Shown here in pieces: positions 1 to 16,762 of a stretch of 24,901 bases of DNA. The translations under genes were made by a program, and so were the position numbers. Each line of letters starts with the position of its first letter. The first letter of the stretch is position 1. The notes beneath the pieces were generated by a model. That model was given only the letters and a program-made list of their open reading frames with translations. It did not search any database and had not been told where the DNA came from. This DNA comes from a virus (lineage: Duplodnaviria > Caudoviricetes): positions 1 through 24,901 of the IMG/VR virus record IMGVR_UViG_3300032225_002328. One strand, given 5' to 3'.

Positions 1-429
1 GATTAGACCTGTTACTTGAATACTATTTGCTCCAGTAATAGCATTGTTACTCATAGCAATTGAACCAGACATGGTGCCACCGGCAAGTGGTAATTTAGTT
101 GAATCAGATGCAGATGCTGATATATTTGCAAAAAGTGAAGAAGCCGAATTTGTAGCGTATGCAACAGACGCACTTGTTATGTTTGTCGCTGGATAATAAT
201 AACTTGCTGGCTGCCCGCCTAATGATGCTGAATTTAAAGCATAATTAACACTTGATGTCCAAGAGGTGTCATAGCTTACAGAGCTGCTTTTTACAAGGAC
301 TTGTCCAACAGTTCCACCCGAAGCCACTCCCGGACCTTGAACACCTACTGATGAAATTACAACATTATTATCCTGCTGAATTGCAGTTACATTATTGGCA
401 TATTGAACAATTGTAATATTTTCAGCCAT
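1..429 (-). CDS. Tail fibre / virion fibre protein, N-terminal 143 codons (runs off the window's left edge)
   Basis: Absent from the ORF track. ATG at 429 overlaps the upstream TAA (TAATG) and the frame is open to base 1: MAENITIVQYANNVTAIQQDNNVVISSVGVQGPGVASGGTVGQVLVKSSSVSYDTSW...STKLPLAGGTMSGSIAM. GGTxGQVLxK..YDTxW and LPLAGGTMxG are typical phage fibre motifs. Confidence 0.8.
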   Translation of the reverse strand, partial: MAENITIVQYANNVTAIQQDNNVVISSVGVQGPGVASGGTVGQVLVKSSSVSYDTSWTSSVNYALNSASLGGQPASYYYPATNITSASVAYATNSASSLFANISASASDSTKLPLAGGTMSGSIAMSNNAITGANSIQVTGLI

Positions 430-785
430 TAATTAATTACCCCGGGATCAACCAAAAACCAGCCCTTTAGCAATGTATATGTATTTGTTCCATTGGTAAT
501 TTGAACTTGATAGGCAGATTTCGGATAATTAAATGTTTTTGTTTTTGTACCAGTCAGGTTTATTGTGACAATCCCGCCGATTCTATCAATTGTTATTCCG
601 TCTCCGACAGAAGCAGATGTTGAAACTGATGCGGAGGCACAAAGAATTCTTCCACCCGGCTCATCTTTAATTTCCATTAATACAGAATAACCTGTTAAAT
701 TAATGGCGGAACCGCTGGAATTAGTATAGGTGAGTTGAACATTCCAAGAATCACCTTGAACTACATTATAATTTGTATCTTTCAT
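429..785 (-). CDS. BppU-N/LtfC-like Ig-fold fibre adaptor protein
   Basis: 118 aa with the pattern QGDSW..LTY..SSG.AINLTGY....IK...G.VTINLT...YQVQIT...LLKG.F.V.PGV. It lies between two fibre genes and has an AGGAG RBS at 791-795. Confidence 0.7.
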   Translation of the reverse strand: MKDTNYNVVQGDSWNVQLTYTNSSGSAINLTGYSVLMEIKDEPGGRILCASASVSTSASVGDGITIDRIGGIVTINLTGTKTKTFNYPKSAYQVQITNGTNTYTLLKGWFLVDPGVIN

Positions 786-812: not shown

Positions 813-3800
813 TTAAGTCAAATTACCTATTAGCAACCATTCATTTGTTGTTCTATACATTAGTGTTGCAGCGCCATATTTAGCTTTAATTGTTCTAGTT
901 GCAGCAGATGTTGGCGAATAATAATTTACTGATGCTCCAGATGCTGGAGTGATTGTTGTAGTTCCAGCTCCATATTGAATTATATCAATTCGTGTTCCCA
1001 CTGTCCATGCGACTGCAGAGGCGGCGGGAACTGTAATGGTATTAGCAGCAGATGATGTCATTTCAATAAATTTACCTGCATCTGTCAAGACTAAGGTATA
1101 GGCAGAGCCAGACTGACTGTTTGTTGCTTGATTGTAAATAACATTTCCTGATGCTGTAATATTTCCTGAACTATCAACTTTTGCCAAAATTGAACCCGCA
1201 GAGTTTTGCCATTCTTGCAGGTTTGCAGATTGAGATGCACTATTTCCACGAATGACAGCACCAATAGTAGTATCAGTTGCTGTAAGGACACCTAATGATG
1301 GTGTGCCAAGACTTGTTCCACTTGTTCTTACAAATAGCCGTGAAGCATTATCAAAACCGCTGTATGTGCTTCCATTAGTGTGATAGAATCTTGCAACATC
1401 AGCAGTTCCTGTTGCATTTGCATTTACTTGCAACCCAATCGCTGATGCTGCCGCATTTATTGTTGCTGCTGTACTAGATGATGGGGAAAGGGTTAAGGCT
1501 CCATTGGCGGATATTTTTGCAAGAATTGTTGTAAGGCTTACGCCGCTAAGGGTATGTCCTATTTGTAAATAATCAACTGTTTGAGCAGAACCAGTTCCTT
1601 GTATTTGTGCCATTGCTGTTGAATCTGTTGTATTTGTAAATCTTACAGGTCTTCCTGTGCCTTGAAATGTCAATGCACTTCCAAAAGCTCCGCTTTGACC
1701 AAATGCAGTTGAATTTGATGTTGTTCCATATAAAATATACGGACCATTACTTTGAGCCGATAATTGAATTTGATAATTGTTTGCTCCAGATGCAGTATTT
1801 CTTGCACTAATTGTGGAGGGTGTAGCAGAAGATGTTGAGTCAACAAAAATAAATCCATTCGAATCAACATATGATAATACTGAACCTGAAGAATTTTGCC
1901 ATTGTGTCAGATTAGAAGATTGGGAGGCAGAACCTCTAATAAGCAAACCATTTTGAGCAGACGCTGGTGTTAATGATAAAGAAAGCGCGGAAATAAGTCC
2001 AGTATTTGGATTATATGTTAATGGGCTAGTTGTATAATCAATTAATAATCCTGTAGTTCCAGAACCAGATGTGAATGTTAAATATCTTGTAGCATTTACA
2101 TTATCATCTGTAACTGCGATATTGTTTGCAGATGCTGCAGTTAATGCAGATGTTACAGAACCTGAAACATTTGATGCTAATATATAACCAGTGCTTGATG
2201 AATATTGAACAGATCCTGTAGCAACATTTGCGCCCAAGTTCACAACACCTGTAAATGTAGGAGATGCTCCAAATGAAGTCAAACTTGAATTAACAACATT
2301 GGAAGCAAGCGTTGTTCCTGTTAATGCTGATGCTGAAATGGAGCTAGCAGATATTGTTACAGAGTCTCCAAGTTTTACCTTTGAGCCATTAATTGTAATA
2401 AAATTATTATTTGAATATATATATCCATTCACATAAAGGTTTGATTCGTAATAAGACTGCATGTAGCCACCTGAACCAGTTCCTGTTGTTACACTTGGAT
2501 GATTAAAGGTAAAAGTTGTTGATGTAGGAATTGAAACAATTCTATAATATGCAGTTGTACTATCGGTATACTGACCATTAATACTAGCTCCAGATGTTGC
2601 AGTTGTACTATAAATATATAAAGGATCTCCAACCCTTAAGGATGAAGTATCTGAAATTGTTGCAGTAATCACATTTGCGGAAACAGTGTATGAAATTATT
2701 GAATATTGATAATAATCTCCCATTGTTACGCTTCCGCCATATTTTTTATTTAAATATAAGCTTGCAGCGGAAGCATTATATTGAGATTGTATATTTTGTG
2801 AATCAATAGCAATATTTTGAATAGATTCTGAATTTCCTACTATAATATTTTTTGATTGAGTTTTTCCAAAGATGTCTACTGAAAACGCTGGATCTGATGT
2901 TTCAGATATTCCAAATCTAACATTATATTGAGATACGGAACTTGTGGTTCCATAAAGTCCTGTAAAATTAGAAAATTGATATGTTGTTGGAGATGCAGAA
3001 AGTTCAAGTTGCATTCCATCATAATTTGCAGAATCATAACCATTCCCTGTTACTAGACCAGATCCATCAGTATTATATGAAACATCAAATTGCACATATG
3101 CAGTATTAGATAAAATTGTTGCCGATGCATAAGCTCTTGTCCATCCACTTGTCATATTAATTAGTGGACCTACTGCTGAAGCAACCATAATTCTTGATGA
3201 ATCATATTGATAAAAAATAGTTTGTGCAGAAGGACTATATGAAAATCCTGCATCTCCGGGAAATACATATCCCGAAAATGTATAAATATTTCCTGATGTT
3301 AATAGTCCGGACGTAGGAATTAAAATTGTAGTTATATTAGAATCGGGATAGTCTCCTAGGGCTTTAAAAGAAATATTTAATGATTTTCCACCATCAAATC
3401 CAATTCCTGAATCTATAGTTTTTACAGTTCTAAATCCTGCATAAGCTGTCCAATAGTTTAATCCTGATTTATTTGATGATTCAAAAGATGGATCATAGTT
3501 TGAAAATAAGTTTTTACCAGTTCCTTGTGTTGAACTAAGCTTATTGCTTGAGATTAACCAGCCACCGATTGATCCAGTTATGGCATTAAGCGTTCCGGCA
3601 AAATATGCGTCTCCACCTGAAGCAGTAATATAAAATGTTGATGAGCCTGCATTGTATCCAAATAATCCATCTTTATTAAATATTACTCCACTAGATGATG
3701 TTAATGCGGGAAGATTTGGAAAAGATCCCGCATACATTGATCCACCATTTAATTGAATGTTAGCGGCAGTATTAGATGTTGCAACAGTAGTGCTTGGGGT

Positions 3801-3914
3801 AGTAAATGTATAAACGGTTGACCAAGCGCCTGTTTGATCTGCAAACAAACCTCTTGCTTGAACATTATATGTTGCTCCCGGTTTTAATTTATCAAGATTG
3901 ATGGAAAATGTCAT
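813..3914 (-). CDS. Modular tail fibre / receptor-binding protein
   Basis: 1033 aa, S/T/G/A-rich. It has an N-terminal half-FN3 (LKPGATYNVQAR..GAWS..TFTTP), a CBM4/9-like domain (KNLF...PSFE...YTFSGYV...GWTR...DGMQLE; ~2980-3518), a small beta-barrel (~2497-2708), QWQN-type repeats and a C-terminal YTLVLTDAGK...IIQYGAG...WLLIGNL domain common in phage fibres. Confidence 0.8.
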   Translation of the reverse strand: MTFSINLDKLKPGATYNVQARGLFADQTGAWSTVYTFTTPSTTVATSNTAANIQLNGGSMYAGSFPNLPALTSSSGVIFNKDGLFGYNAGSSTFYITASGGDAYFAGTLNAITGSIGGWLISSNKLSSTQGTGKNLFSNYDPSFESSNKSGLNYWTAYAGFRTVKTIDSGIGFDGGKSLNISFKALGDYPDSNITTILIPTSGLLTSGNIYTFSGYVFPGDAGFSYSPSAQTIFYQYDSSRIMVASAVGPLINMTSGWTRAYASATILSNTAYVQFDVSYNTDGSGLVTGNGYDSANYDGMQLELSASPTTYQFSNFTGLYGTTSSVSQYNVRFGISETSDPAFSVDIFGKTQSKNIIVGNSESIQNIAIDSQNIQSQYNASAASLYLNKKYGGSVTMGDYYQYSIISYTVSANVITATISDTSSLRVGDPLYIYSTTATSGASINGQYTDSTTAYYRIVSIPTSTTFTFNHPSVTTGTGSGGYMQSYYESNLYVNGYIYSNNNFITINGSKVKLGDSVTISASSISASALTGTTLASNVVNSSLTSFGASPTFTGVVNLGANVATGSVQYSSSTGYILASNVSGSVTSALTAASANNIAVTDDNVNATRYLTFTSGSGTTGLLIDYTTSPLTYNPNTGLISALSLSLTPASAQNGLLIRGSASQSSNLTQWQNSSGSVLSYVDSNGFIFVDSTSSATPSTISARNTASGANNYQIQLSAQSNGPYILYGTTSNSTAFGQSGAFGSALTFQGTGRPVRFTNTTDSTAMAQIQGTGSAQTVDYLQIGHTLSGVSLTTILAKISANGALTLSPSSSTAATINAAASAIGLQVNANATGTADVARFYHTNGSTYSGFDNASRLFVRTSGTSLGTPSLGVLTATDTTIGAVIRGNSASQSANLQEWQNSAGSILAKVDSSGNITASGNVIYNQATNSQSGSAYTLVLTDAGKFIEMTSSAANTITVPAASAVAWTVGTRIDIIQYGAGTTTITPASGASVNYYSPTSAATRTIKAKYGAATLMYRTTNEWLLIGNLT
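1160..1950 (-). repeat. Internal ~35-aa protein repeats in the tail fibre (2 clear and 2 degenerate copies)
   Basis: GLLIRGSASQSSNLTQWQNSSGSVLSYVDSNG (~1855-1950) matches GAVIRGNSASQSANLQEWQNSAGSILAKVDSSG (~1165-1263). Degenerate copies QIQGTGSAQTVDYLQ..ILAKISANG and LQVNANATGTADVARF lie between them. Confidence 0.75.
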
Positions 3915-4768
3915 TAAGTCACCTGCAATGTATATTCAATTCTTGCACTTTGACCATATGTTTTAGTTATGAAAGGACTTGCATAGGCAGAACTTGCTTG
4001 TCTCGCTAGCACTAATTGAGATTCATCTTTGCTATAATTTTTAACAAACTTTAAATGATCTAAAAATAATTGACCATTAGCAGCTGTAAGAGTTATTGAT
4101 GCAGTTGCTATGGTATCACTGAATGCTGAATCTTTTGTATTAAAATTCATTTGCAATACACCCCATGTATTAGATGCGGTAGCAGACAAAGTTCCTGATG
4201 CCGTCCATGTTGTTCCCAAGTCGTCTACAAAAACTGTTGTTACGCTGGCTGCAGATATAGAACTAGAAACTAAATATAGCATATTTAAATAATCTGTATC
4301 AAAATATCCATCTGACGATGCATAAATATTGCTATTCCAGACAGTTGATCCTGCTTGCAATCTAACATCTTGTGTTCCCGCCCTAAACGAAGCAGTTGAA
4401 ACTGATGCAGTTGTACCTGTTTGATAAGACCAAGTTGAGGATCCTGATGTATCAACTTCAGAAAAATCCGTAATTGGAGTATGATCAAGATTTGAAAAAT
4501 TATCTTCTGTAGTTGGAAATACAGCAATTTCATATATTTTTGCAATTAAGTCTGTATCCATATAGCCACCAATAATTATTCTACTTCCTGATGCTGAATA
4601 AATAAAGTTTTTATCAGCTGAATATCTGGCAATTTCATATTGCAAGGCTGTAGTTGCGGATGATGTTGCAGTTGTGCCCAATAGACCAACTGCTATTGTT
4701 CCTGCCCAGTCTCCTCCTGCTCCACCTAAAAATTTATTAATTGAATAAACTCCACTTGAAGTAATCAT
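3914..4768 (-). CDS. Baseplate/fibre-attachment minor tail protein (DUF3751/tail-collar-like frame with an inserted jelly-roll domain)
   Basis: The pattern MIT..G...IAVG..GT......T.L.YEIAR...IYEIAVF...VLAR...ITK.....RIEY.L resembles P2 gpH N-terminal-like domains. The central ~150 aa ending WGVL...LFLDHLKF looks CBM-like. Coupled to both neighbours by ATGA and TAATG overlaps. Confidence 0.55.
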   Translation of the reverse strand: MITSSGVYSINKFLGGAGGDWAGTIAVGLLGTTATSSATTALQYEIARYSADKNFIYSASGSRIIIGGYMDTDLIAKIYEIAVFPTTEDNFSNLDHTPITDFSEVDTSGSSTWSYQTGTTASVSTASFRAGTQDVRLQAGSTVWNSNIYASSDGYFDTDYLNMLYLVSSSISAASVTTVFVDDLGTTWTASGTLSATASNTWGVLQMNFNTKDSAFSDTIATASITLTAANGQLFLDHLKFVKNYSKDESQLVLARQASSAYASPFITKTYGQSARIEYTLQVT

Positions 4769-5175
4769 GCTATGTTAATCCTAACTTCATAATCATATGC
4801 GTCATCGACTCCATCAAATGTCAAATTTGCAACGTAATATACAGATCCATCATTGGTATCTGTTTGTAACCTAAAACCTGTAATACTATCAATATTTAAA
4901 TTTTGTGGAGGATTTTGAAGAATATTGTCTGAAATTGCTAAATAATTTGGAAAATTATCTTCATAAAATCTGTTATTAGATAAATCATAAGTGTTTTCAG
5001 AAAGATATTTGTATTGATCAATCGAAGTAGGCGTTTTTGATGAAACAACTTGAATTCCCGGATTTTCTCTCAAGAATTCAATAGTATTCCTAGGATCATT
5101 TTCTGTAATATAAATTACAGGGTCTCTAGGTACCTGATTGTTAGTAGTTTGTTTAGTATAATCTTTATTAATCAT
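4765..5175 (-). CDS. Minor tail protein ending in an N-terminal half of an FN3-like domain
   Basis: 136 aa with a GGAG RBS at 5183-5186. The C-terminus reads NPPQNLNI...VANLTFDGVDDAYDYEVRINIA. Confidence 0.65.
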   Translation of the reverse strand: MINKDYTKQTTNNQVPRDPVIYITENDPRNTIEFLRENPGIQVVSSKTPTSIDQYKYLSENTYDLSNNRFYEDNFPNYLAISDNILQNPPQNLNIDSITGFRLQTDTNDGSVYYVANLTFDGVDDAYDYEVRINIA

Positions 5176-5193: not shown

Positions 5194-5202
5194 ATTATAT
5201 CA
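5194..5202 (-). promoter_or_regulatory. Extended -10 promoter motif TGATATAAT
   Basis: Its TGA is the stop codon of the 1507-aa gene. It is followed by a GGAG RBS and the ATG at 5175. Confidence 0.65.
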
Positions 5203-8200
5203 ACTCATTCCAAACATTGGCTTTAGGATTAATTCTGTATCGAATCCTGCACCATAATTGTGACTTACTGACTTGACAAAAAAGTATTTTGGAATAACAC
5301 CTGCCTCTCTATCATATCCTATATTTTTTAAGGTATATACAAGTTGACAAAAATCTCCTACTTGTATCAAGGGGTTTCCAAAGATTTTTGCAGTAACAGT
5401 TCCATTAAATGTTTTGCTTAAGATTTGAACAAGATTAACAATATCTTCAGCATCGTTTCTGCTTTGAACCCAAGGTGAATCAATTTGAATATTTTCTTTT
5501 AAATTTTGAGAATTAATTACTTTTTCAATGTTATTATCAGTTGATAAAGTTTGTTTTACGGCATAAAGGGTTACAGGTCTAACAGGGACTTCACCAACTT
5601 TTCCAGAGTCCGTTGAAAGGTAGACAAGTTGATTTGTATTATTTACCATAGCCATAGATACTCTGAATGGAGATTCGCAAGGATCTGAATATGCAACATC
5701 TGTTTCTTGAACTTTATTGAGAGGACTTTCCTGCACTCCAACCTGAGGCAAACCATTTTCATCATGGTATGTGTATGTAGAGTCTGGATCATACTTTACC
5801 TTAATCCACTTAAAGGTTCCCGGCAAACAGGGAGAATACTCTAAGTCTCTACTTCTATAAATATTTAAACCTTTAAAAACAATTTCTGATGTCCACATAT
5901 AATATTTGTTTGTATTTGGAATATTTTGAACAATATTATTTAAATATTTTCTAGCTGTAAAATGGTATTTTAATTTATTTGAAACAATATCAGAATTTGC
6001 ATTTGCAAATGAATCTTGATTTGTTTTCCATTGAGCTGCATATATTTCAGAGATTGCAACTCCAGAATTTTGTGAATTATGATTGTAATAATAAACTCCA
6101 AAATTATTAAAACCATTCGATAATAAGTAATTTAGTAGTTTATACTGACCCAACCATTCTCCATTTATTCCAAAAAAAGAAATTTCCATACCAGTTTTTT
6201 TGTTGTCATTGATTAAAAAAGAAAACCTGTAGAGTTTTTCTTTTGATATTATAAAAGATGTTGGTATTGATAATTTTCCGCTCAAAGATGGACTGTTAGC
6301 AAAATCTGTTCCTAAAGCTGAATTTTGACCGATTACAATAAAAGTGCCACTAGAATTAAATTTTAAGCCTATATATATAGGGTTTGTTGTTGTCACTGGA
6401 GTTGTTGATAAATTTCCGCCCTGATCAAGATATATGCCTACTTCTTGATATTTATCTGTTATCTTGTCAACAATAGAAAAATCTATTGAAAAATAATTAC
6501 AATTTTTAGCTTTAAATTTTGGAACTACCACTCTAGATATATTTTTTAATCTTGTTGACAATGATTGAAGGCTTCTTGCATCAAGAGTCAGAACTGAACC
6601 CTTTTTGCTTAGTAGTTTGCTTTCAGGGACTTGAATAAATTGTGATTTTGGAGAAGCATTTTTTAATGAAGAGCCTCTTGATTTACTTGAAGTTTCTTTA
6701 AAATAAAAATAATTGTCTGGCAATGTAAATCCAGTTTTTGATTGACTTAAAAATCTTAAATGATCTTTTTCTTGAGTTCCATACTTTCCTCTTTCAAGTT
6801 CTACAAATTTTCCGGTGGGTTGAAAATAAAAATCTAAAGCTGTTGGATTTTCTGACTTTAATTGAGAAAGTGTTAATTGAATGTCTGCATCACTTCTTAT
6901 AATTGTTGTATATTTTGATGCATCGTCAACATCAATATTTCCGCACCAAAAGTCGTACTCCATACCGTTATATTTAATAATTTCTCCATCAACAAAACCC
7001 TCTCCAGAATAATCTGTAATTGAATTTAATGCTGTGTTCATAACTCTTGGAGAAATGTAAAGTGAATTTTGACCTGCAGTTAACTGTTGATCTAAACGAG
7101 TTGAAAATAATCCACTCATTTCTTTTGGACCCCACACTGGAGTTGCATCATTTCTGTATTGTTGTCTTGAACTTATTCCTATTGCAGATGAATTTAATGC
7201 CATGTTAATTGATGGAATTTTATAGTTAAAAATAATTTTTCCGGGGACTGGACCAATGTCATGACCAAATCCATCTGAAATTAAATTAGGAGTATATGTA
7301 ATTGAAGATGTTCCAATTTTATCAAGAAATTTATCTGTTACTGCAAAATCTGCTTTAAAACTTTTATCTAAATATGAATCAACAATTTGTCTAATGCTTT
7401 TAAATCTCATAATTCCATATTCATCAAACCATGCACCTATTTGATGTGAAACAAAAAATGATTGTAATGAATCAAATAAAGTTGCTTTTACGTCCGTCCA
7501 AAAAAAGGTTGTATCTTTTGCTGATTCTATTAAAACTGTTTTTAATTGATCATAGTCAAAATCGCTGAATCCGCCTGCTGATAGTAAATTAATAATTGTA
7601 TCAAATGCTGGTTCGTTGTATCCTGAATACTGTGGAGACTGTATTGCCATTAAACTATATTTGGCAAAATCATACAAATCTATTGATAATGTTGAAATAT
7701 CATTCATTGACCACTTATTTGAATACATTACAAACATTGGAATTTTTTCAGTAAAATCTTGTTGTGGAGAAACTAAATTAACAGAAAATTTAACTCCTTC
7801 TCTTAATAAATCTTTAAATGTTGAATTTTCAGATATTTGATCAAAAATTGTATATGGAGTTCCATTGTTATAAACAGGAATATTACTTATTTCAATTGTT
7901 CCTGAATTTGAGTTCATATAGCCCAATGGGAATCCCGCCGCCGTTTGCGATGCATCAATATCTTTCTTAACATTAAAACCTTTTGTCAATGAAGATATGT
8001 CAATTTCAAGTCTAGGTGAAATTTCAACAATATGCAATCTGTTTTGTGTAATTGAATCCCATCCGTCATTAGCACTATTAACATTTTTTAAAACTTTAAA
8101 ATTAATTTGAATTTGAGCAACATTTGATAAAGAATTTGTTATTAAACCAGAATCAGTTAGTGCTGGTGGATCAAATGTTCCTGAGGCATTCCATTTAATT

Positions 8201-9723
8201 CCATCATAAAAAAGAGTTAAATATTCTTTTCCATTTAAATCGGAACTTGAAAAACTTGCAGTTGATATTTGACTTCCTGCTGCATTATAAAAAGATACAC
8301 TACCCGATGAAATATTAGTAAATCTATTTATTGTTTTTAATATAAGCTTGTTTATTGTTAAATAATTATCATATCGTGCAGATATATAATGATCAACTGC
8401 TGCTGAGCCACTTTGAGTTTTTGAATTTGAAATATAATATTTAAATGTATTATAAACAGATGGCAAAATATTTTTTCTATAATTTGCAGCATCAAATCCA
8501 TCTGGATTGTAATAAGCATATGTTACTGGTTTATTAGTAGAACCATTCATAATAGTTGTTGAAGTATTTAATGGATTCAACAAAGATTCTCCGGGTCTAT
8601 TTGATTGAAAAATTTGTTCAATTGGATAGTAATACCCTGCATCATAGTTCCAATCATTAATTTGAATTAAATCAAATTTATCAAAATAAATTATTTGATT
8701 TGAATTAGTTGATGATAAGTTTAATGAAAGATTAAATTTATCAAATGTAGAATATGAACCAAAAAATACTTCTACTTTATTATATTGCACTCCGTTTGGA
8801 TAAAAAGAACCAATTATTTGACCTGTATCCATTTTTTCATCTTCATAAAACTTTACATAGTATGTTGCATCATCAATAGAATCTGTTCCATTATACAATT
8901 TAACAGAAGGAGAAACTGAAATTCCAGAGGGTTGTCCCGGAGGTCTGTGCATTTGATTAATTTCTATTTGACCTATACCCAAAACATTTGTGCTATCTGT
9001 AAATGTTACAGATGCTGTTCCACCACCTGTACTAATGTCTCTTTTTGTAACAGTTTTAAAATATTTTGGATATGGAACATAAGAATCATCATCAGATTGC
9101 TCTGAAAAATAAATATCATATTCAACAGCATTTGGATCTTGAGTCCAAGTTAGGACTGCTTTTGTGTTTGAATTAAATACTCTGCTGGTTGACTCACTGC
9201 CATCAATAGAAAATGACGGTCTATATCCACTTTTACTTACAGGGACAACCCATGCATAGAATTTAATTCCTCCCGGATTTGATGCAGTGGTAAATGATGC
9301 TGTTGTAACTCTATTAGTATATCCAACAACAAAATCCATGTCAGATTTTGTATAAAAAGTTAATTTGTAAAACGCTGGACCGGATACTGTTGCTGATGCG
9401 GTTATGCTTGCACTATTGTTAGTTGTAATAAATCTAACAGAGTTAATATCTTTTCTAGTATTTGTTATATATGCGGTTGATGCAGAATAAATATTTCCAT
9501 TAACAATGTAGTTTGTGCTTCCGGATTGAACTGTTGCATTTGTTGCAGTAAATGAAGATGTAGAGTTAAAAATATTAAATGATGCTGTTGAAAGTTGATT
9601 TGAAAAAACATTGTATGGCTTGTAAATATTGTTATAATTCCATTCAACTAAAGTTTCTGGATTCATATTGATAGAATTATGTGCTGCAAATGTTTGTTCT
9701 GAATTTCCATTTAACTTAAGCAT
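5200..9723 (-). CDS. Large tail tip / baseplate hub (Tal-like) protein
   Basis: 1507 aa directly after the Dit. Hub-like motifs are WFDEYGIMRF, DGEIIKY, ERGKYGT and a C-terminal IDSPWVQS..DAE...IFGNPLIQVGD...YFFVKSVSH. An FN3-like segment (VLTWTQDPNAVEYDIY) lies in the N-terminal part. Confidence 0.75.
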   Translation of the reverse strand: MLKLNGNSEQTFAAHNSINMNPETLVEWNYNNIYKPYNVFSNQLSTASFNIFNSTSSFTATNATVQSGSTNYIVNGNIYSASTAYITNTRKDINSVRFITTNNSASITASATVSGPAFYKLTFYTKSDMDFVVGYTNRVTTASFTTASNPGGIKFYAWVVPVSKSGYRPSFSIDGSESTSRVFNSNTKAVLTWTQDPNAVEYDIYFSEQSDDDSYVPYPKYFKTVTKRDISTGGGTASVTFTDSTNVLGIGQIEINQMHRPPGQPSGISVSPSVKLYNGTDSIDDATYYVKFYEDEKMDTGQIIGSFYPNGVQYNKVEVFFGSYSTFDKFNLSLNLSSTNSNQIIYFDKFDLIQINDWNYDAGYYYPIEQIFQSNRPGESLLNPLNTSTTIMNGSTNKPVTYAYYNPDGFDAANYRKNILPSVYNTFKYYISNSKTQSGSAAVDHYISARYDNYLTINKLILKTINRFTNISSGSVSFYNAAGSQISTASFSSSDLNGKEYLTLFYDGIKWNASGTFDPPALTDSGLITNSLSNVAQIQINFKVLKNVNSANDGWDSITQNRLHIVEISPRLEIDISSLTKGFNVKKDIDASQTAAGFPLGYMNSNSGTIEISNIPVYNNGTPYTIFDQISENSTFKDLLREGVKFSVNLVSPQQDFTEKIPMFVMYSNKWSMNDISTLSIDLYDFAKYSLMAIQSPQYSGYNEPAFDTIINLLSAGGFSDFDYDQLKTVLIESAKDTTFFWTDVKATLFDSLQSFFVSHQIGAWFDEYGIMRFKSIRQIVDSYLDKSFKADFAVTDKFLDKIGTSSITYTPNLISDGFGHDIGPVPGKIIFNYKIPSINMALNSSAIGISSRQQYRNDATPVWGPKEMSGLFSTRLDQQLTAGQNSLYISPRVMNTALNSITDYSGEGFVDGEIIKYNGMEYDFWCGNIDVDDASKYTTIIRSDADIQLTLSQLKSENPTALDFYFQPTGKFVELERGKYGTQEKDHLRFLSQSKTGFTLPDNYFYFKETSSKSRGSSLKNASPKSQFIQVPESKLLSKKGSVLTLDARSLQSLSTRLKNISRVVVPKFKAKNCNYFSIDFSIVDKITDKYQEVGIYLDQGGNLSTTPVTTTNPIYIGLKFNSSGTFIVIGQNSALGTDFANSPSLSGKLSIPTSFIISKEKLYRFSFLINDNKKTGMEISFFGINGEWLGQYKLLNYLLSNGFNNFGVYYYNHNSQNSGVAISEIYAAQWKTNQDSFANANSDIVSNKLKYHFTARKYLNNIVQNIPNTNKYYMWTSEIVFKGLNIYRSRDLEYSPCLPGTFKWIKVKYDPDSTYTYHDENGLPQVGVQESPLNKVQETDVAYSDPCESPFRVSMAMVNNTNQLVYLSTDSGKVGEVPVRPVTLYAVKQTLSTDNNIEKVINSQNLKENIQIDSPWVQSRNDAEDIVNLVQILSKTFNGTVTAKIFGNPLIQVGDFCQLVYTLKNIGYDREAGVIPKYFFVKSVSHNYGAGFDTELILKPMFGMS

Positions 9724-10772
9724 TATATTTCCGTCAATTCTAAACTTATGTCAACACGATCTGTGTATGTTAATCTTTTATTTATTTTGTAATCAAAATT
9801 TGTTATAAAACATTTTACAATATCTGAAGAAACTGCTGGAGCAATAGTTGATGCATAAAATGTGCTGATTGGCTTTGAAATGATTGATGTTGTTGTTTTT
9901 AATGTAATCATTCCGTTTCTTCCTCCGGCAGTTTGACTTGAAGTAGATGTAGCAGTGATCAAATTAGTTTGAGGATTTGATGCATATGTCCAATCAACAT
10001 TATTTATTGTTGATCCTGAAGTCATGAGCATATTTTTTGTTGTAAATACAGTTCCCGATTTAGCCCAATATGTTGCATCAAGGTTGAATGAAGCTGTAGT
10101 TCCTGATTGTAAAAATGCATTTGCAACAACTGTTGGGTTAGAAATATTATAAGTTAATATTGAATTTGATGCTGTATGGGTAACGCTATTAATTGATGCT
10201 GTACCATTAAAGATAGGATCCAATCCAGATACATAAACAAGATTTCCTGCTGTATAGCCAGTTGCTCTTACATTTGTTGTAACAGAAGCTGTTCCAACGC
10301 CTGTACTAATTGCACTAATTGAAGCAGAAACAATGGAATAGGCTGATGGGGTTGATGTGTTTGTAACAGAAGGCTTAAATGTTGTATTTGCGGTGTAATT
10401 ATTTATAGAATTTAATGAAGATACTTGTCTCCATGCTTCTTCTGAATATGTAAGTTTAACCCATACTGGTTGATATACATTTTCTTCAAAAAATGATTTT
10501 AAGAAAGCCCCGCCTAGATTTCCATCGGCAATAAACTCAATGCCAGAATTTGATGGCAAATCGGACCACGATGTTGAGAGTTTCTTTTTGTTGGCAGTAA
10601 TGAATCTACGCATTGTTCCATCAGCCATTCTGTCTGATTTTTCAATTCTTTCATAGTTAATCTGCAATGGTTGTCTATTATGATCTGTTAATGTATAGCC
10701 AGTTGCCGTTGATCCGGGGATTGAAGGATCCTCAAGATAAATCTGTATAATAGCTTTAGTTGGAAAAGACAT
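9723..10772 (-). CDS. Distal tail protein (Dit-like) with a ~190-aa S/T-rich insertion
   Basis: Immediately follows the tape measure (TGATG overlap). A Dit-like N-terminus (LTDHNRQP...RMADGTMRRF...K..STSWSDLP) and C-terminus (CFITNFDY.I.KR....VDISLELTEI) flank a beta-rich insert. Confidence 0.7.
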   Translation of the reverse strand: MSFPTKAIIQIYLEDPSIPGSTATGYTLTDHNRQPLQINYERIEKSDRMADGTMRRFITANKKKLSTSWSDLPSNSGIEFIADGNLGGAFLKSFFEENVYQPVWVKLTYSEEAWRQVSSLNSINNYTANTTFKPSVTNTSTPSAYSIVSASISAISTGVGTASVTTNVRATGYTAGNLVYVSGLDPIFNGTASINSVTHTASNSILTYNISNPTVVANAFLQSGTTASFNLDATYWAKSGTVFTTKNMLMTSGSTINNVDWTYASNPQTNLITATSTSSQTAGGRNGMITLKTTTSIISKPISTFYASTIAPAVSSDIVKCFITNFDYKINKRLTYTDRVDISLELTEI

Positions 10773-13700
10773 CAGATAATTCTCCTATTGCTGTACAAAG
10801 TTTGTTGTTTTCTTTCAATTGTTTTCAAAACGGCATTTGCAATATCATCTGGCGAAGCGCTTGAACCTTCAACATTAACATTAATATTATACACTGTGTT
10901 ATTCATTGTGCCGACATTTACTCCGTTGCTGCCTGAATTAATTGAACTAAATGTTGGTGTTAAAAGCATTCCTTGATTAATCATATCAAGATATTTTATT
11001 CCCATTTTTTTAGCTGCAGATGCATTAATAACATATTCTCCATGTGAGAGTCTAGCAGAAATTGAATCAGATGTTCCTGTTCCGGGACCAGAAACAGATC
11101 CACCTCTTGCAAACCACTGGGTATCGTCCACATTCCCTCCTAAAAACTTAATCCCAAGGGCACCATTTTGTTTAATAGCATTGCCCATTTTGTCGTAAGG
11201 AGTATATCCATTATAACTTCCATAGGTAACGGATGGTTTATATTGTCTATCATCTTTTACAAAAGGATTATTTGTTGCATCAAATATTGGGGCAAGAGAA
11301 GCATTAGATGAAAATGCCGCATGAGCTTTATCAGTAAATTTTGGAAGATAATCTCCTTGATTAGTTTTTTTAGTGTTAATAACTTTTTTGCCTTTATTTA
11401 CTCCATCAGTTAAAGTTTTTGTATCAAAATATCCTTGTAAGGCAAAAGAAAGCAAATAAGAATCAACTGGTGTTTTTAAATCTTGATCAAGATAATAGTC
11501 AGAAATGTTTTCTTTTCCATAGCCTAATGCGGTAGCAAGTTGACTAAAATTGCGAATAGTTGCATTTTTACCAAATCCTAAGGCTGCTTTTGCTTTGCTT
11601 ATATCTTTGCCGAATGCGGTAGAGAGTGAATTTCCAATTTCTGAGGCTGTAGTTCCTTGCCCTTGCGACTTTAATGATGCTGCAACTTGAGCAACTGTTG
11701 CTCTATTTTGACCAATGGCGGGGTTTATTACGCTGCCTTTAGCAATTGCTGAAAGTCTGGATTGTGCTGAAGAAATACCAGCAATTTGTGAAAAACTATT
11801 AATATTTTTCATGCTTAAGGCTAAACTTTGTGCAATGTCGGCAAGATTTTTAAATTCTGGAGTAGCTTTAATTTGACTTAAAACTGATTTTATTTTTTCA
11901 GCATCTACATGAGCATCTTTTAAAGCTTTCCAAGCTTTCCCGGCAGGGGTTGTTGCGCCTTTTCCAGATAAATATCTAAAGAAACCATCCATACTTCCTG
12001 TCCAAGTAGTTAACCCGGCAGCTAAGGTATCTATATATCCCTTAGATTCTACAGCAATATTTCCTATACCTGTCATTGCTTTTGTTGTTGTCTTTGCAAC
12101 CGATGTTGTTGATTTTTGTGCAGCAGCGGAATATTTTTTCATTACTTCTGTCCATTTATCTGCTTTCTCTGTTGCAGCCTGTTGTCTTTTTTCAAGTCGT
12201 GCTTGAGTTGAATCAAATTGTTTGGTATTAGAAATTCTATTTCTTGTTTCTTCTAGATTAGCCTGTGCAGCACTAATTCGAAGAAGATTTCCTGATGCCA
12301 TCGCTTCATCTAATGAATTTTGTGCGCCTTGAACCTCTTTATTTGCTTCTACCGCTGCTTGAGCTTGTTGTCTAAGAGTATTGTTTTCATCAATTTGAGT
12401 TTTCAATGTTTCATTTAAAGTTTTTTGTGCTTTTATATGATCTTGAATTTCTTGTTTACTATAGCCTGTTGCTTTTTTACCTGCTGCAGCTGCTGCGGCT
12501 GCGTTAGAGCTTCCAGTTGATTTTGTTGCTGCAGATTGATTTGCTGCTGCAACTGCTTGATCTATAATGTTGGAACCTTTTGAAACCATGCCTTCTACGG
12601 CATCAACATTTAAAAATGCTTGAAGACCTGCTTGTGTAGCAGTAGCATTAACCAATTGGTCTGCTGTTTGAATTGTTCCATTAACAAAAAGTCTATTCGC
12701 AACCATTAATCTTTCTAAGGCTTGTTGATATCCGGCTGATCCATTTGTCAAATTATTAGTTTGAACTGCAGTATTTAAAGCAATTTGATTGTAATTTGCA
12801 AGAGCTGAATTTTGTTCTCTAACTTTTGAATTATAAGTATCAAATGTTGATGAGTTCATTACAACAGATTCTTTTGTTTTTGAAAGTGTTGTATTCATTT
12901 CATTAAAACTATCATAAAGTGATTTTGCCGATGTTGCAGTTTGCGTTACATTAAATGCAAATGCACCTGTCTGTCCGGACGATGCGTTTCTAAATCCCGT
13001 TGTCATTGCTTGTTGTCTAGTCATTAATTGCATTTGTGATTGCAAGCCACTAAGAAATCCTGCTGATCCAAATCCAGTAATTCCAGCATTTTGCATATAT
13101 GCAGCAACATCTGTTTTTGCTTGTGTTGCAGTCATTCCTGCTGCCATATCTGCTAAAAATTTTTCTTTCAAAAGTTTAAATTGTTCTGAGGTACCCATTC
13201 TTTTAATTCCTTCAACTTCATCCTTGAAGTGGGAATCTTGTTCTTGTTGGGCTTTATATTTTTCTGAAAGTGAATCAATTTCTGATTTAACTGCTTCACT
13301 AGTTGTAACTGCTGATTTAAAAGCAGCATTTCCAAAATCTGTTACCTTAATCCTAAAATGTTCTAAAGCGGTTGAACTTGTCATAGCAGCACCTTCAAGT
13401 GCTGCTGCTTGTTGTCTGGAAAGCATTCTTGCGTGAGCAATTCTTCCTTGAATAAGACCGCCAACTGCTCCAACAATTGCACCTGCGCCAGTGGCAATCA
13501 TATTATATGGAGGGGGAAGGAATTGACCAATTGCACCGCCTACTTCTAATCCTTTAGAAAGACCACCCATTGTTTGCATTCCCATGCTTTGCTCTTCATA
13601 TGGTTTATTTGATCCGGGCATCATGCTTGAAAGCATTCCTGCTCCCATTCCTAATGCGGCTCCACCAATTCCTGCAAATTTACTTTGACCAATTTTTCCA

Positions 13701-16700
13701 AATGCAGTTCTAACTGAATTAAGTTTTGATGAAATTTTCATTCTTCTGCTTGGATTTTTTGAATCTACTTCGTCAAAAAGTGAAGTATAATCTGAAAGTT
13801 GAGATTCCCATTCTCCATATTTTGATTTCATAGAAATTCCAGACTCTCTGGCGGCTTTTCTTTCTCTTAATTGAACTAATCTTGATCTTTGTTCTGCGCT
13901 TAATCCTGACGGAATTGCATCTCCAATTCCACCTGCAAATGCGGGTGCTGCTAAATTTGCAAATCTTCCTAGACCTTTGCTTCTTGTCACTGCGTCTCTA
14001 GCAGAACTTAATTTTTTTGATGGTGTGTCGCCTATTGCTTCATGAGTTACAGCTTCTTGAATTGCAATTTCTGAATTATGAATTATTTTTGCAGTCAATT
14101 CATTTAATCTTAAAGAAAGAGCTTTTGCAAACTCACTTAATCTTTCTTCTGGATCAGTTATATGCGCAACATCTTTTATTGCTTTTTGTTCTGCAGACTC
14201 GGTGGCTTTTGCCATTTGAGTTGTTATTTTACCTACATCAACGCCAAATCTTTTTGCAAGTATCTCAAGATTTGTTTTATACTCTTCAGGGGTCTTTCCA
14301 GCAACAGCATTAATATCAGAAATTGAACCGCCACTTTTTAAAATGGCGTTAGCAGTACTTATAATTGTTGAAGAACCTGCCGTTTGAGATTTTGTTCTGC
14401 CAGAGGATAGGAATGAAACTAATTGTTCTGTTGATAGTCGATTAACTGCTCCTGATGCTGTTACGCCGCCACCTGTTACATCTATCAATTTTTTTCTTAA
14501 TTGTGCTTCATTCATTCCTCTTAATTCTGATTCTGGAAGCATGATTTGAGCATTTCTTTTTCCTATTGCTTTTTGTAAATATTGCTCTTCTGGATTTGTG
14601 GAATAAAAACCTGATTGAATTCCGGACACCCTGCCACTTGCTCCCGCATTGAACAATGCTCCTGCTGTTGATGCGCCTTGACCTGAATGAATAAATTGTA
14701 GCTCTCCTTCATAAGAGCTACCTCTATCTCCTTGAATTTCAATTGATGGAGATCCTGCAGCAGATGCTCTTGCTCCGGGAGTTCCTCCGGGAATAGGTCT
14801 TGGAGTAATTGGTCCGCCTGCATAAATTTGTTCCAGCCTTGTAACCTCAGAAGCATATTCTGCAATTGCCATAGTTAATGCTTTGATTGCATCTTCTTCT
14901 TTCATGACTTGCTGCGTAACTGTTTCAGATAATCTTTGTGATGCTAAAAGAGATGGATCTACTTCTTTAAAATAGTTTTGTGTTCCTGAACTACCGCCCT
15001 TAAATTTTGCTAATAGACCGCCTTCAGTTTTTCCAAAACCTTGTTTAAACATTCTTGCGCCATTATAAATTTTAAACAATTGTCCGGCTAAGTTTGCTAC
15101 CAAACCAATAACCATAGTTATAGGACCAACAAGCATTGCTCCACCTAAAACTGCTTTAATTGCAGTTCCAATTGGACCTAATTTAGAAAAAAGATGAGCA
15201 ATTTTTTCTCCGACTTCCAATACCTTGGTAGCAACAGTTAAAAATGATTCCCCGATAGGAAGAATTGCTGTTTTAAATGATTCCATTGCAATTTTATATT
15301 TACCTGCAGCAGACTCTTGAATTTGTTTTGTTTGTTTGTCTGCAATTCCTGCTAATTGAGCTGAAGAAAGACCCATCATTTGCATGACTTTAGCAGATTG
15401 TGTTCCTTCTTTATTAAAGTTGTTAAACAGGGCTGTCATACGAGCAAATTGAAATTTACCAAATAGCTCTGAAATAGCTCTTTGTCTGTCTAAACTTGAT
15501 AAATTGTCAAGACCTTTTTGAAGGTCTGTAATCATTCCAATCATGTTTCCAGAGTTTTTATTTACAATACCATTAATATCAATTCCAAAAGCTGCAAGTG
15601 ATTTTTGAGCAGTAGCGGTTGGAGAAATTAATCTACCCAATGAGTTTTTAAGTGCGTTTGCACCTTCACCTGCAGAAACACCACCTTCTTTCATAGCTAC
15701 AAGTAATGCAACCATGTCTTTGTAGCTTCCACCCAATCCTTTTACAACAGGACCGACTCTTGGAATTGCTCCAATAAGATCAGCCATGTTGGTTGATGTA
15801 GCAGCTTGTGCTGCGTTAAAAAAGTTTACTGAATCTGTTAATTCAGTTGTATTAAGCTTGAATGCAGTCTGTAAAGCAATAGTTGCTTTAATGGCATCTT
15901 GTTTGTCTGTTTCTCCAAGCACGACCATTCTGGATGCCTGCTTTGTTGCATTAATAAGATCTTTTCCAGTTAGTCCTGCTGCAGCAAGGTCGGCTGCCAT
16001 CGAAGTTGTTTCTTTTGCAGAAACACCTAATGTTTTAGACATTTCTGTAGCAAGTCCCATAATCTCATTTTTTACAAGATTCAATTGAGCTTTTGTAGGT
16101 TCAGTCAAACCTACTCCATATACTTTTTGAAGTCTTGTCATTTCAGTATTTACATCAAGGAACATTTGTGATGCTGCTTTACCTGCAAGTGCCATTGGAA
16201 CAGTTAAACCTGCAGTTAACTGGCGACCCGCCCACTGTGTATTTTTACCAAAGTTAATTAGTTTTTCAGCGCCATCTTTGTACGCTGTATTTAAAAGTTG
16301 TTGATATATTTGTGCTTGTTTTGCGGCATTTCCTGCAGCTGATGTAGCGGCAATAATGTGAGCATAACCTTTTTGAGTAGAAGATGGAATGATTGTTGCT
16401 GCATGCATTTTTGCTTGAGCAGCAGCAACTTGATTTATTTCATCAACAATTCCTTTGCGAGATTTTCCAATAATTGAAAAATATTCACCTAGTTTTAGCT
16501 TGCTTTGTGATATTTGTTTTGTTAATCTTTCAGTGGAGCTTGCAAGTGCAATTGTTTCTACGCTGAATGCTCTTGTTGCAGCAACATTTGCAAGCATTTG
16601 AGTTTCTGCTGATTGAAGTCCCGAAACAAGACCCGCTGGAACAATATTGCCCATAGTTTGTTTTGACAAAGATGCCATTGCCGATTTTAATCTAGCAAGT

Positions 16701-16762
16701 TCTGAATAGACTGGAGCAAAATTAGCATCAGCAGTTAATTGAATATTAAGAAACGATGTCAT
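10772..16762 (-). CDS. Tail tape measure protein
   Basis: 1996 aa, Ala/Lys-rich and helical. It has a TP901-type core (GKNTQWAGRQL...MKEGGVSAGEGANALK...ELFGKFQ), hydrophobic Gly-rich segments and a C-terminal FARGG.V.GPGTGTSDSISARLSHGEYVINA motif. AAGGAGG RBS at 16774-16780; lies downstream of the chaperone pair. Confidence 0.95.
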   Translation of the reverse strand: MTSFLNIQLTADANFAPVYSELARLKSAMASLSKQTMGNIVPAGLVSGLQSAETQMLANVAATRAFSVETIALASSTERLTKQISQSKLKLGEYFSIIGKSRKGIVDEINQVAAAQAKMHAATIIPSSTQKGYAHIIAATSAAGNAAKQAQIYQQLLNTAYKDGAEKLINFGKNTQWAGRQLTAGLTVPMALAGKAASQMFLDVNTEMTRLQKVYGVGLTEPTKAQLNLVKNEIMGLATEMSKTLGVSAKETTSMAADLAAAGLTGKDLINATKQASRMVVLGETDKQDAIKATIALQTAFKLNTTELTDSVNFFNAAQAATSTNMADLIGAIPRVGPVVKGLGGSYKDMVALLVAMKEGGVSAGEGANALKNSLGRLISPTATAQKSLAAFGIDINGIVNKNSGNMIGMITDLQKGLDNLSSLDRQRAISELFGKFQFARMTALFNNFNKEGTQSAKVMQMMGLSSAQLAGIADKQTKQIQESAAGKYKIAMESFKTAILPIGESFLTVATKVLEVGEKIAHLFSKLGPIGTAIKAVLGGAMLVGPITMVIGLVANLAGQLFKIYNGARMFKQGFGKTEGGLLAKFKGGSSGTQNYFKEVDPSLLASQRLSETVTQQVMKEEDAIKALTMAIAEYASEVTRLEQIYAGGPITPRPIPGGTPGARASAAGSPSIEIQGDRGSSYEGELQFIHSGQGASTAGALFNAGASGRVSGIQSGFYSTNPEEQYLQKAIGKRNAQIMLPESELRGMNEAQLRKKLIDVTGGGVTASGAVNRLSTEQLVSFLSSGRTKSQTAGSSTIISTANAILKSGGSISDINAVAGKTPEEYKTNLEILAKRFGVDVGKITTQMAKATESAEQKAIKDVAHITDPEERLSEFAKALSLRLNELTAKIIHNSEIAIQEAVTHEAIGDTPSKKLSSARDAVTRSKGLGRFANLAAPAFAGGIGDAIPSGLSAEQRSRLVQLRERKAARESGISMKSKYGEWESQLSDYTSLFDEVDSKNPSRRMKISSKLNSVRTAFGKIGQSKFAGIGGAALGMGAGMLSSMMPGSNKPYEEQSMGMQTMGGLSKGLEVGGAIGQFLPPPYNMIATGAGAIVGAVGGLIQGRIAHARMLSRQQAAALEGAAMTSSTALEHFRIKVTDFGNAAFKSAVTTSEAVKSEIDSLSEKYKAQQEQDSHFKDEVEGIKRMGTSEQFKLLKEKFLADMAAGMTATQAKTDVAAYMQNAGITGFGSAGFLSGLQSQMQLMTRQQAMTTGFRNASSGQTGAFAFNVTQTATSAKSLYDSFNEMNTTLSKTKESVVMNSSTFDTYNSKVREQNSALANYNQIALNTAVQTNNLTNGSAGYQQALERLMVANRLFVNGTIQTADQLVNATATQAGLQAFLNVDAVEGMVSKGSNIIDQAVAAANQSAATKSTGSSNAAAAAAAGKKATGYSKQEIQDHIKAQKTLNETLKTQIDENNTLRQQAQAAVEANKEVQGAQNSLDEAMASGNLLRISAAQANLEETRNRISNTKQFDSTQARLEKRQQAATEKADKWTEVMKKYSAAAQKSTTSVAKTTTKAMTGIGNIAVESKGYIDTLAAGLTTWTGSMDGFFRYLSGKGATTPAGKAWKALKDAHVDAEKIKSVLSQIKATPEFKNLADIAQSLALSMKNINSFSQIAGISSAQSRLSAIAKGSVINPAIGQNRATVAQVAASLKSQGQGTTASEIGNSLSTAFGKDISKAKAALGFGKNATIRNFSQLATALGYGKENISDYYLDQDLKTPVDSYLLSFALQGYFDTKTLTDGVNKGKKVINTKKTNQGDYLPKFTDKAHAAFSSNASLAPIFDATNNPFVKDDRQYKPSVTYGSYNGYTPYDKMGNAIKQNGALGIKFLGGNVDDTQWFARGGSVSGPGTGTSDSISARLSHGEYVINASAAKKMGIKYLDMINQGMLLTPTFSSINSGSNGVNVGTMNNTVYNINVNVEGSSASPDDIANAVLKTIERKQQTLYSNRRII

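Follow-up and report, generated by a model that had tools for sequence, protein, structure and literature searches.

How is a fibre fastened to the tail tip when the tail hub ends early, and could a single FN3 domain divided between two genes be the fastening? This question is raised by a 24.9-kb (24,901-nucleotide) virus record of an uncultured tailed phage, about 23% complete and analysed over its whole length (hereafter the window), which carries on its minus strand a siphophage structural module with portal, protease, capsid, connector and tube genes. The hub gene is followed by g1, g2, g3 and a gene for a 118-aa protein, in this order (Table 1). A preliminary description of this DNA had proposed that the end of g1 and the start of g3 are complementary halves of one FN3 domain, assembled in trans across an intact g2. 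The open reading frames of g1, g2 and g3 were recovered with the same coordinates, strand and lengths as in that description, and the gene overlaps it relied on can be read in the sequence (ATGA at g1/g2, TAATG at g2/g3).

Two flanking genes deserve a comment of their own. The 349-aa protein in the Dit position compares with a protein of about 133 aa in Streptomyces relatives, which implies a large inserted domain. The 118-aa protein also weakly matches phrog_3304 ("L-shaped tail fiber protein assembly"), and is probably an anchor of the BppU-N/p132 type for side fibres whose genes lie downstream.

Table 1. Tail genes and half-domains of the window, with positions counted from its first nucleotide.
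Feature	Position	Strand	Length or residues	Remarks
Tape measure	10772-16762	-		
Dit-position gene	9723-10772	-	349 aa	
Tail hub (Tal-like)	5200..9723	-	1507 aa	phrog_10359, E 3e-39
g1	4765..5175	-	136 aa	Conserved N-terminal segment, acidic low-complexity linker, C-terminal half-domain
g1 C-terminal half-domain	4768..4914	-	residues 88-136	Likely FN3 strands A, extended A'-B hairpin, B, C
g2	3914..4768	-	284 aa	Predicted T4-gp8-like domain and inserted CBM-type jelly roll
g3, fibre	813..3914	-	1033 aa	
g3 N-terminal half-domain	3795..3914	-	residues 1-40	FN3 strands E, F, G
Gene after g3	429-785	-	118 aa	phrog_1084, E 5e-18

The ends of g1 and g3 compared with FN3 domains

At the level of sequence, the assignment of the g3 start to the second half of an FN3 domain (strands E-F-G) is secure. 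Residues 4-37 align to positions 50-83 of the 84 positions of Pfam fn3 (PF00041) with an E of 0.044, under the curated cut-off, and the same family is matched at E<=0.1 by 21 of the 47 aligned g3 starts of relatives. A search of the PDB with a profile of these 47 starts returned solved FN3 proteins as top matches, and the window copy matches a profile built without it with an E of 5e-11. The residues of the tyrosine corner, L10 and Y16, are nearly invariant among the 47 sequences. In FN3 domains, strands E-F-G pack on strands B and C.

For a comparison within the lineage itself, an intact-FN3 profile of length 104 was used, made from 46 domains that lie further inside the fibres of relatives. 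The g3 start occupies positions 66-104 of this profile (P 4.3e-6), and the g1 half occupies positions 4-49 (P 4.3e-4, with 1e-3 being reached by 3 of 940 shuffles), so that the two map to complementary, non-overlapping stretches of one lineage-specific profile. Strand C' (positions 50-65) is absent from both the g1 half and the g3 half of the window. An N-terminal extension is present in 27 of 46 related g3 starts, and the remaining 19 start at strand E like the window copy; this extension could possibly supply the edge strand C' in the relatives that bear one. All seven FN3 strands are not found together in one chain here, the halves being placed in separate ORFs.

The assignment of the g1 end to FN3 strands A-B-C is plausible. 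The tryptophan of the FN3 B-strand is replaced in g1 by Phe120, the tyrosine of the C-strand is present as Tyr129, and many of the 46 intact domains have an extended A-B hairpin that resembles the one of g1. In 122 g1/g3 pairs, the g1 columns Y114/A116/L118/F120 and Y129/V131 are 90-100% hydrophobic, and the core-facing columns of both halves are 80-100% hydrophobic. The statistics of the g1 half are weak: a P below 0.01 on the intact-FN3 profile was obtained for 6 of 47 g1 halves and for 32 of 940 shuffles, the profile-profile probability of the g1 half against intact FN3 is 1.7-3.2%, and in the context of the whole ORF the g1 match (P 0.0045) does not rise above the chance-level matches among the 123 ORFs of the window. 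The match of the window g1 half to a distant g1 profile built without the window is marginal (equalled by 3 of 2000 shuffles; E 0.59 in the ORF scan). When the halves are searched separately, as the preliminary description had suggested, g3 matches Pfam fn3, but the g1 end gives neither a Pfam match nor a PDB sequence match. Its view that each terminus is one FN3 half is secure for g3 and plausible, though statistically weak, for g1; its view that the halves are complementary agrees with their mapping on the intact domain, except that neither contains strand C'.

Folding of either half into a complete domain on its own had been named as an observation that would speak against the shared domain. 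AlphaFold2 modeling of g1 alone yielded only a hairpin (95-105/112-120), with a pLDDT of 50 and a pTM of 0.22; the alignment was shallow (35 sequences), which possibly explains the poor model.

Some g1 orthologues carry an extra domain after the half-domain (L009:4292-5101, L026, L031, L035, L064-L067; P0020, P0054 and others). Among the best 120 g1 homologues, this appended domain is Trp-rich and FN3-like in 20 and small and cysteine-containing in 10.

Conservation of the locus and the proteins around the halves

The three-gene layout with the same termini follows the hub in the Streptomyces phages Blueeyedbeauty (gp41-43) and Jay2Jay (gp67-69) and in the Rhodococcus phage Trina (gp084-086), with gp41 and gp67 holding the position orthologous to g1. 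Blueeyedbeauty and Jay2Jay belong to the Stanwilliamsviridae and encode these genes in their minor tail module; in all three phages, the annotation of the orthologues does not go beyond "hypothetical" or "minor tail protein".

Among the viral contigs anchored on the hub, both halves were found in all 59 that had enough DNA, a count that is partly circular as the same loci were used to build the profiles (65 contigs were collected via the hub C-terminus, of which 6 were too short). They were likewise present in 10 of 10 and 79 of 79 g2-anchored loci with enough DNA (from sets of 11 loci and of 80, the best of 398, with one too short in each), some of these contigs recurring from the hub-anchored set. 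For 14 closer relatives, the general profiles detect both halves in only one; with a profile of the window's own subfamily the g1 half is detected in 11 of the 14 at P<1e-3 (shuffles 1/700), and with the intact-FN3 profile the g3 half is detected in 13 of the 14 at P<0.01. In the best 120 of 380 g1 homologues we encountered neither a fused form nor an E-F-G half: 90 end at most 15 residues past strand C, and in the other 30 a linker is followed by a further, separate domain. The pairing is conserved across the lineage, and g2 sits between both halves at every locus examined. Loci that clearly keep one half without the other, which the preliminary description regarded as counter-evidence, were not seen among the loci examined. 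It had also suggested looking for co-occurrence and co-evolution of the halves; they are paired at all hub- and g2-anchored loci with enough DNA, but covariation between the g1 and g3 halves gave no signal.

The intervening g2, described earlier as intact, is a conserved, self-complete folded protein, the model of which is complete without g1 or g3. It is predicted to consist of a T4-gp8-like (phage 812 arm-segment-like) domain, formed by residues about 1-90 plus 250-284, and a CBM-type jelly roll inserted at residues about 95-246 (window 4031-4486). The gp8-like features of the model are an N-terminal helix and a beta-sheet with a C-terminal strand (275-281), which is conserved and part of its own well-modelled domain; no sequence-profile similarity to the phage 812 arm segment or T4 gp8 was found. 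In phage 812, the scaffold of the arms passes through dimers of the arm segment, and the fold binds extended strands of a partner (PMC13433997). Unlike g2, the phage 812 arm segment and T4 gp8 belong to the baseplates of contractile tails and have no CBM-type domain inserted. Homologues of g2 contain further insertions (up to about 660 aa) within the gp8-like domain (P0135, P0162, P0166, P0190, P0217, P0220, P0250, P0265, P0272), and given these domain insertions g2 looks like a display platform. The g2 profile also weakly matches residues 515-567 of the baseplate hub of archaeal virus HFTV1 (9H4P; E 0.048, Foldseek E 1.2e-5), so that this hub may include a g2-like domain as a fused part.

For the window hub, matches were obtained in 132 phage records, of which 127 belong to Streptomyces phages and 5 to Rhodococcus phages. 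Its C-terminal domain, presumably HD-IV, aligns with the ends of the hubs of relatives, and the window hub ends without a C-terminal FN3 or spike extension. Within the hub, residues about 180-227 map to positions 19-70 of the intact-FN3 profile (P 0.0036; window 9000-9300, minus strand, hub residues about 150-240), and this FN3-like stretch is preceded by an apparent F-G pair, which suggests a circularly permuted Ig/FN3 insertion.

Judging from its relatives, g3 is probably the central tip fibre. Its C-terminus matches phrog_8780 (minor tail protein). Of six related g3 proteins that were scanned, three have FN3 strings followed by PF09327 Phage_Tail_Tip (E 2e-7, 2e-9 and 1e-3); the other three are partial or lack PF09327. 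The fibres of relatives have several intact FN3 domains behind the half-domain, but none is found in the window g3, which gives no significant match to a PF09327-like segment either; because of this, the central-fibre assignment of the window copy rests on orthology. An Atlas score of 0.82 for a central tip fibre is a lead only. The fibre envisaged in the preliminary description has to be revised: g3 is closer to a central tip fibre (the C-terminal half of lambda gpJ, T5 pb4) than to a side fibre, and the sole basis for calling it swappable is the variable g3 bodies behind a conserved start.

A candidate two-chain joint and its alternatives

We consider it rather probable that the C-terminal strands of g1 and the N-terminal strands of g3 form an FN3 sandwich between the two chains, by which the fibre is connected with the hub region. 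In such a joint, g1 would supply strands A, B and C and g3 strands E, F and G. From the topology of FN3, each of the two sheets (A-B-E and C-F-G) would contain strands of both chains, and the hydrophobic core would therefore arise only once the chains assemble. Through the sandwich, the fibre would be held at the tail tip, with g1 as the likely tether. Less securely, the short N-terminal segment of g1, which is conserved, may bind as an extended strand to either the hub or the gp8-like part of g2, and the acidic linker of g1 may give slack. With g2, the joint would also bear a glycan-binding-type domain. Further partners beyond the window are possible, as the window is about 23% of the genome.

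The main competing explanation is that the strands of g1 are added to g2, at its gp8-like domain, or to the hub and that E-F-G of g3 folds among the copies of the fibre trimer, so that no shared sandwich is needed. g2 may be an alternative partner for g1, since its fold is known to bind extended strands of a partner (PMC13433997). However, the g3 start retains the tyrosine corner and the E-F-G core residues that pack on B and C in FN3, the g1 half corresponds, on the intact FN3 of the same lineage, to a part that the g3 start lacks, and a separate conserved N-terminal segment of g1 could serve g2; we regard this explanation as unlikely. More improbable still is a sandwich of three chains, in which a terminal strand of g2 fills the place of C' or caps the open edge between A-B-C of g1 and E-F-G of g3. 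It would account for the lack of C' in both halves here and for the position of g2, which ends in a conserved strand, between the halves; against it, that strand belongs to the protein's own well-modelled domain, and 27 of the 46 g3 starts bring a candidate C' of their own.

The weak statistics of the g1 half could also be taken to mean that a gene is broken, that the assembly is wrong or that the resemblance has arisen by chance, readings to which we attach almost no credence. The same layout and termini occur in finished genomes of cultured phages and in more than 100 contigs, by which an artefact is refuted, g2 is conserved and folded, and the gene overlaps are coupled. The argument of the preliminary description on this point stands, and the split layout is ancient, not an assembly error.

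The two-chain sandwich can be set beside several known systems. In chaperone-usher pili, a second chain completes an Ig-like fold that lacks a part, through donor-strand complementation, which involves one donated strand, a chaperone and repeated polymerisation. g1 and g3 differ in that each chain would contribute half a domain (about three strands) to a single joint, and donor-strand-type repeated subunits were not found in the window. The closest likeness, by architecture, is the baseplate tripod of Lactococcus phage Tuc2009, where a C-terminal hairpin of BppU completes domain 2 of BppA as a composite titin-like domain: two tail-tip proteins share one beta-sandwich that hangs an adhesion module on the baseplate (PMC4742702). 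There, the hairpin has two strands and complements a sheet in a domain that is already largely formed, each of the two pieces being C-terminal (PMC4742702), unlike g1/g3, in which about three plus three strands would meet, C-terminus to N-terminus, from non-adjacent genes and with a long fibre as cargo. The preliminary description knew of no such arrangement; the principle of a two-chain sandwich is, however, already on record with BppU/BppA (PMC4742702). In our incomplete search of the literature, no description of a split FN3 in this phage family or at a hub-fibre junction was found; a half-and-half FN3 split at this junction, occurring in culturable phages, was thus not found in print.

Lambda and T5 share the order hub, linker, FN3 string and beta-rich spike. 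In lambda the hub, linker, two FN3 domains and central fibre are parts of one chain (PMC10721106), and in T5 pb3 and pb4 each contribute to the FN3 string, which transmits the trigger for infection (PMC10038345). The chain break of T5 falls between two whole, loop-held FN3 domains (PMC10038345); here it would fall inside FN3. Unlike in both phages, the window hub ends early and the linker resides on a separate small protein, g1. Together, g1 and g3 would replace the linker-FN3-spike part that is fused into lambda gpJ and split between T5 pb3 and pb4.

Implications for the lineage

Binding of the two chains is likely, and would constitute a third hub-fibre connection, beside those of lambda (fused) and T5 (split between domains). 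We propose only tentatively the wider reading that an obligate half-and-half FN3, encoded by non-adjacent genes, attaches the central receptor-binding fibre in a large actinobacterial and freshwater siphophage lineage, passes the trigger for infection on from the fibre to the hub, and allows fibres whose bodies differ widely to be swapped behind a plug of 40 residues. Such modules escape domain searches because neither half passes the family threshold. The proposal gives a testable role to genes labelled hypothetical or minor tail in the relatives represented by 132 Streptomyces and Rhodococcus phage records, three of which were inspected. If binding is confirmed, the pair would be a small natural split-domain tag, and the joint would point to the place at which phages of antibiotic-producing Streptomyces can exchange their fibres.
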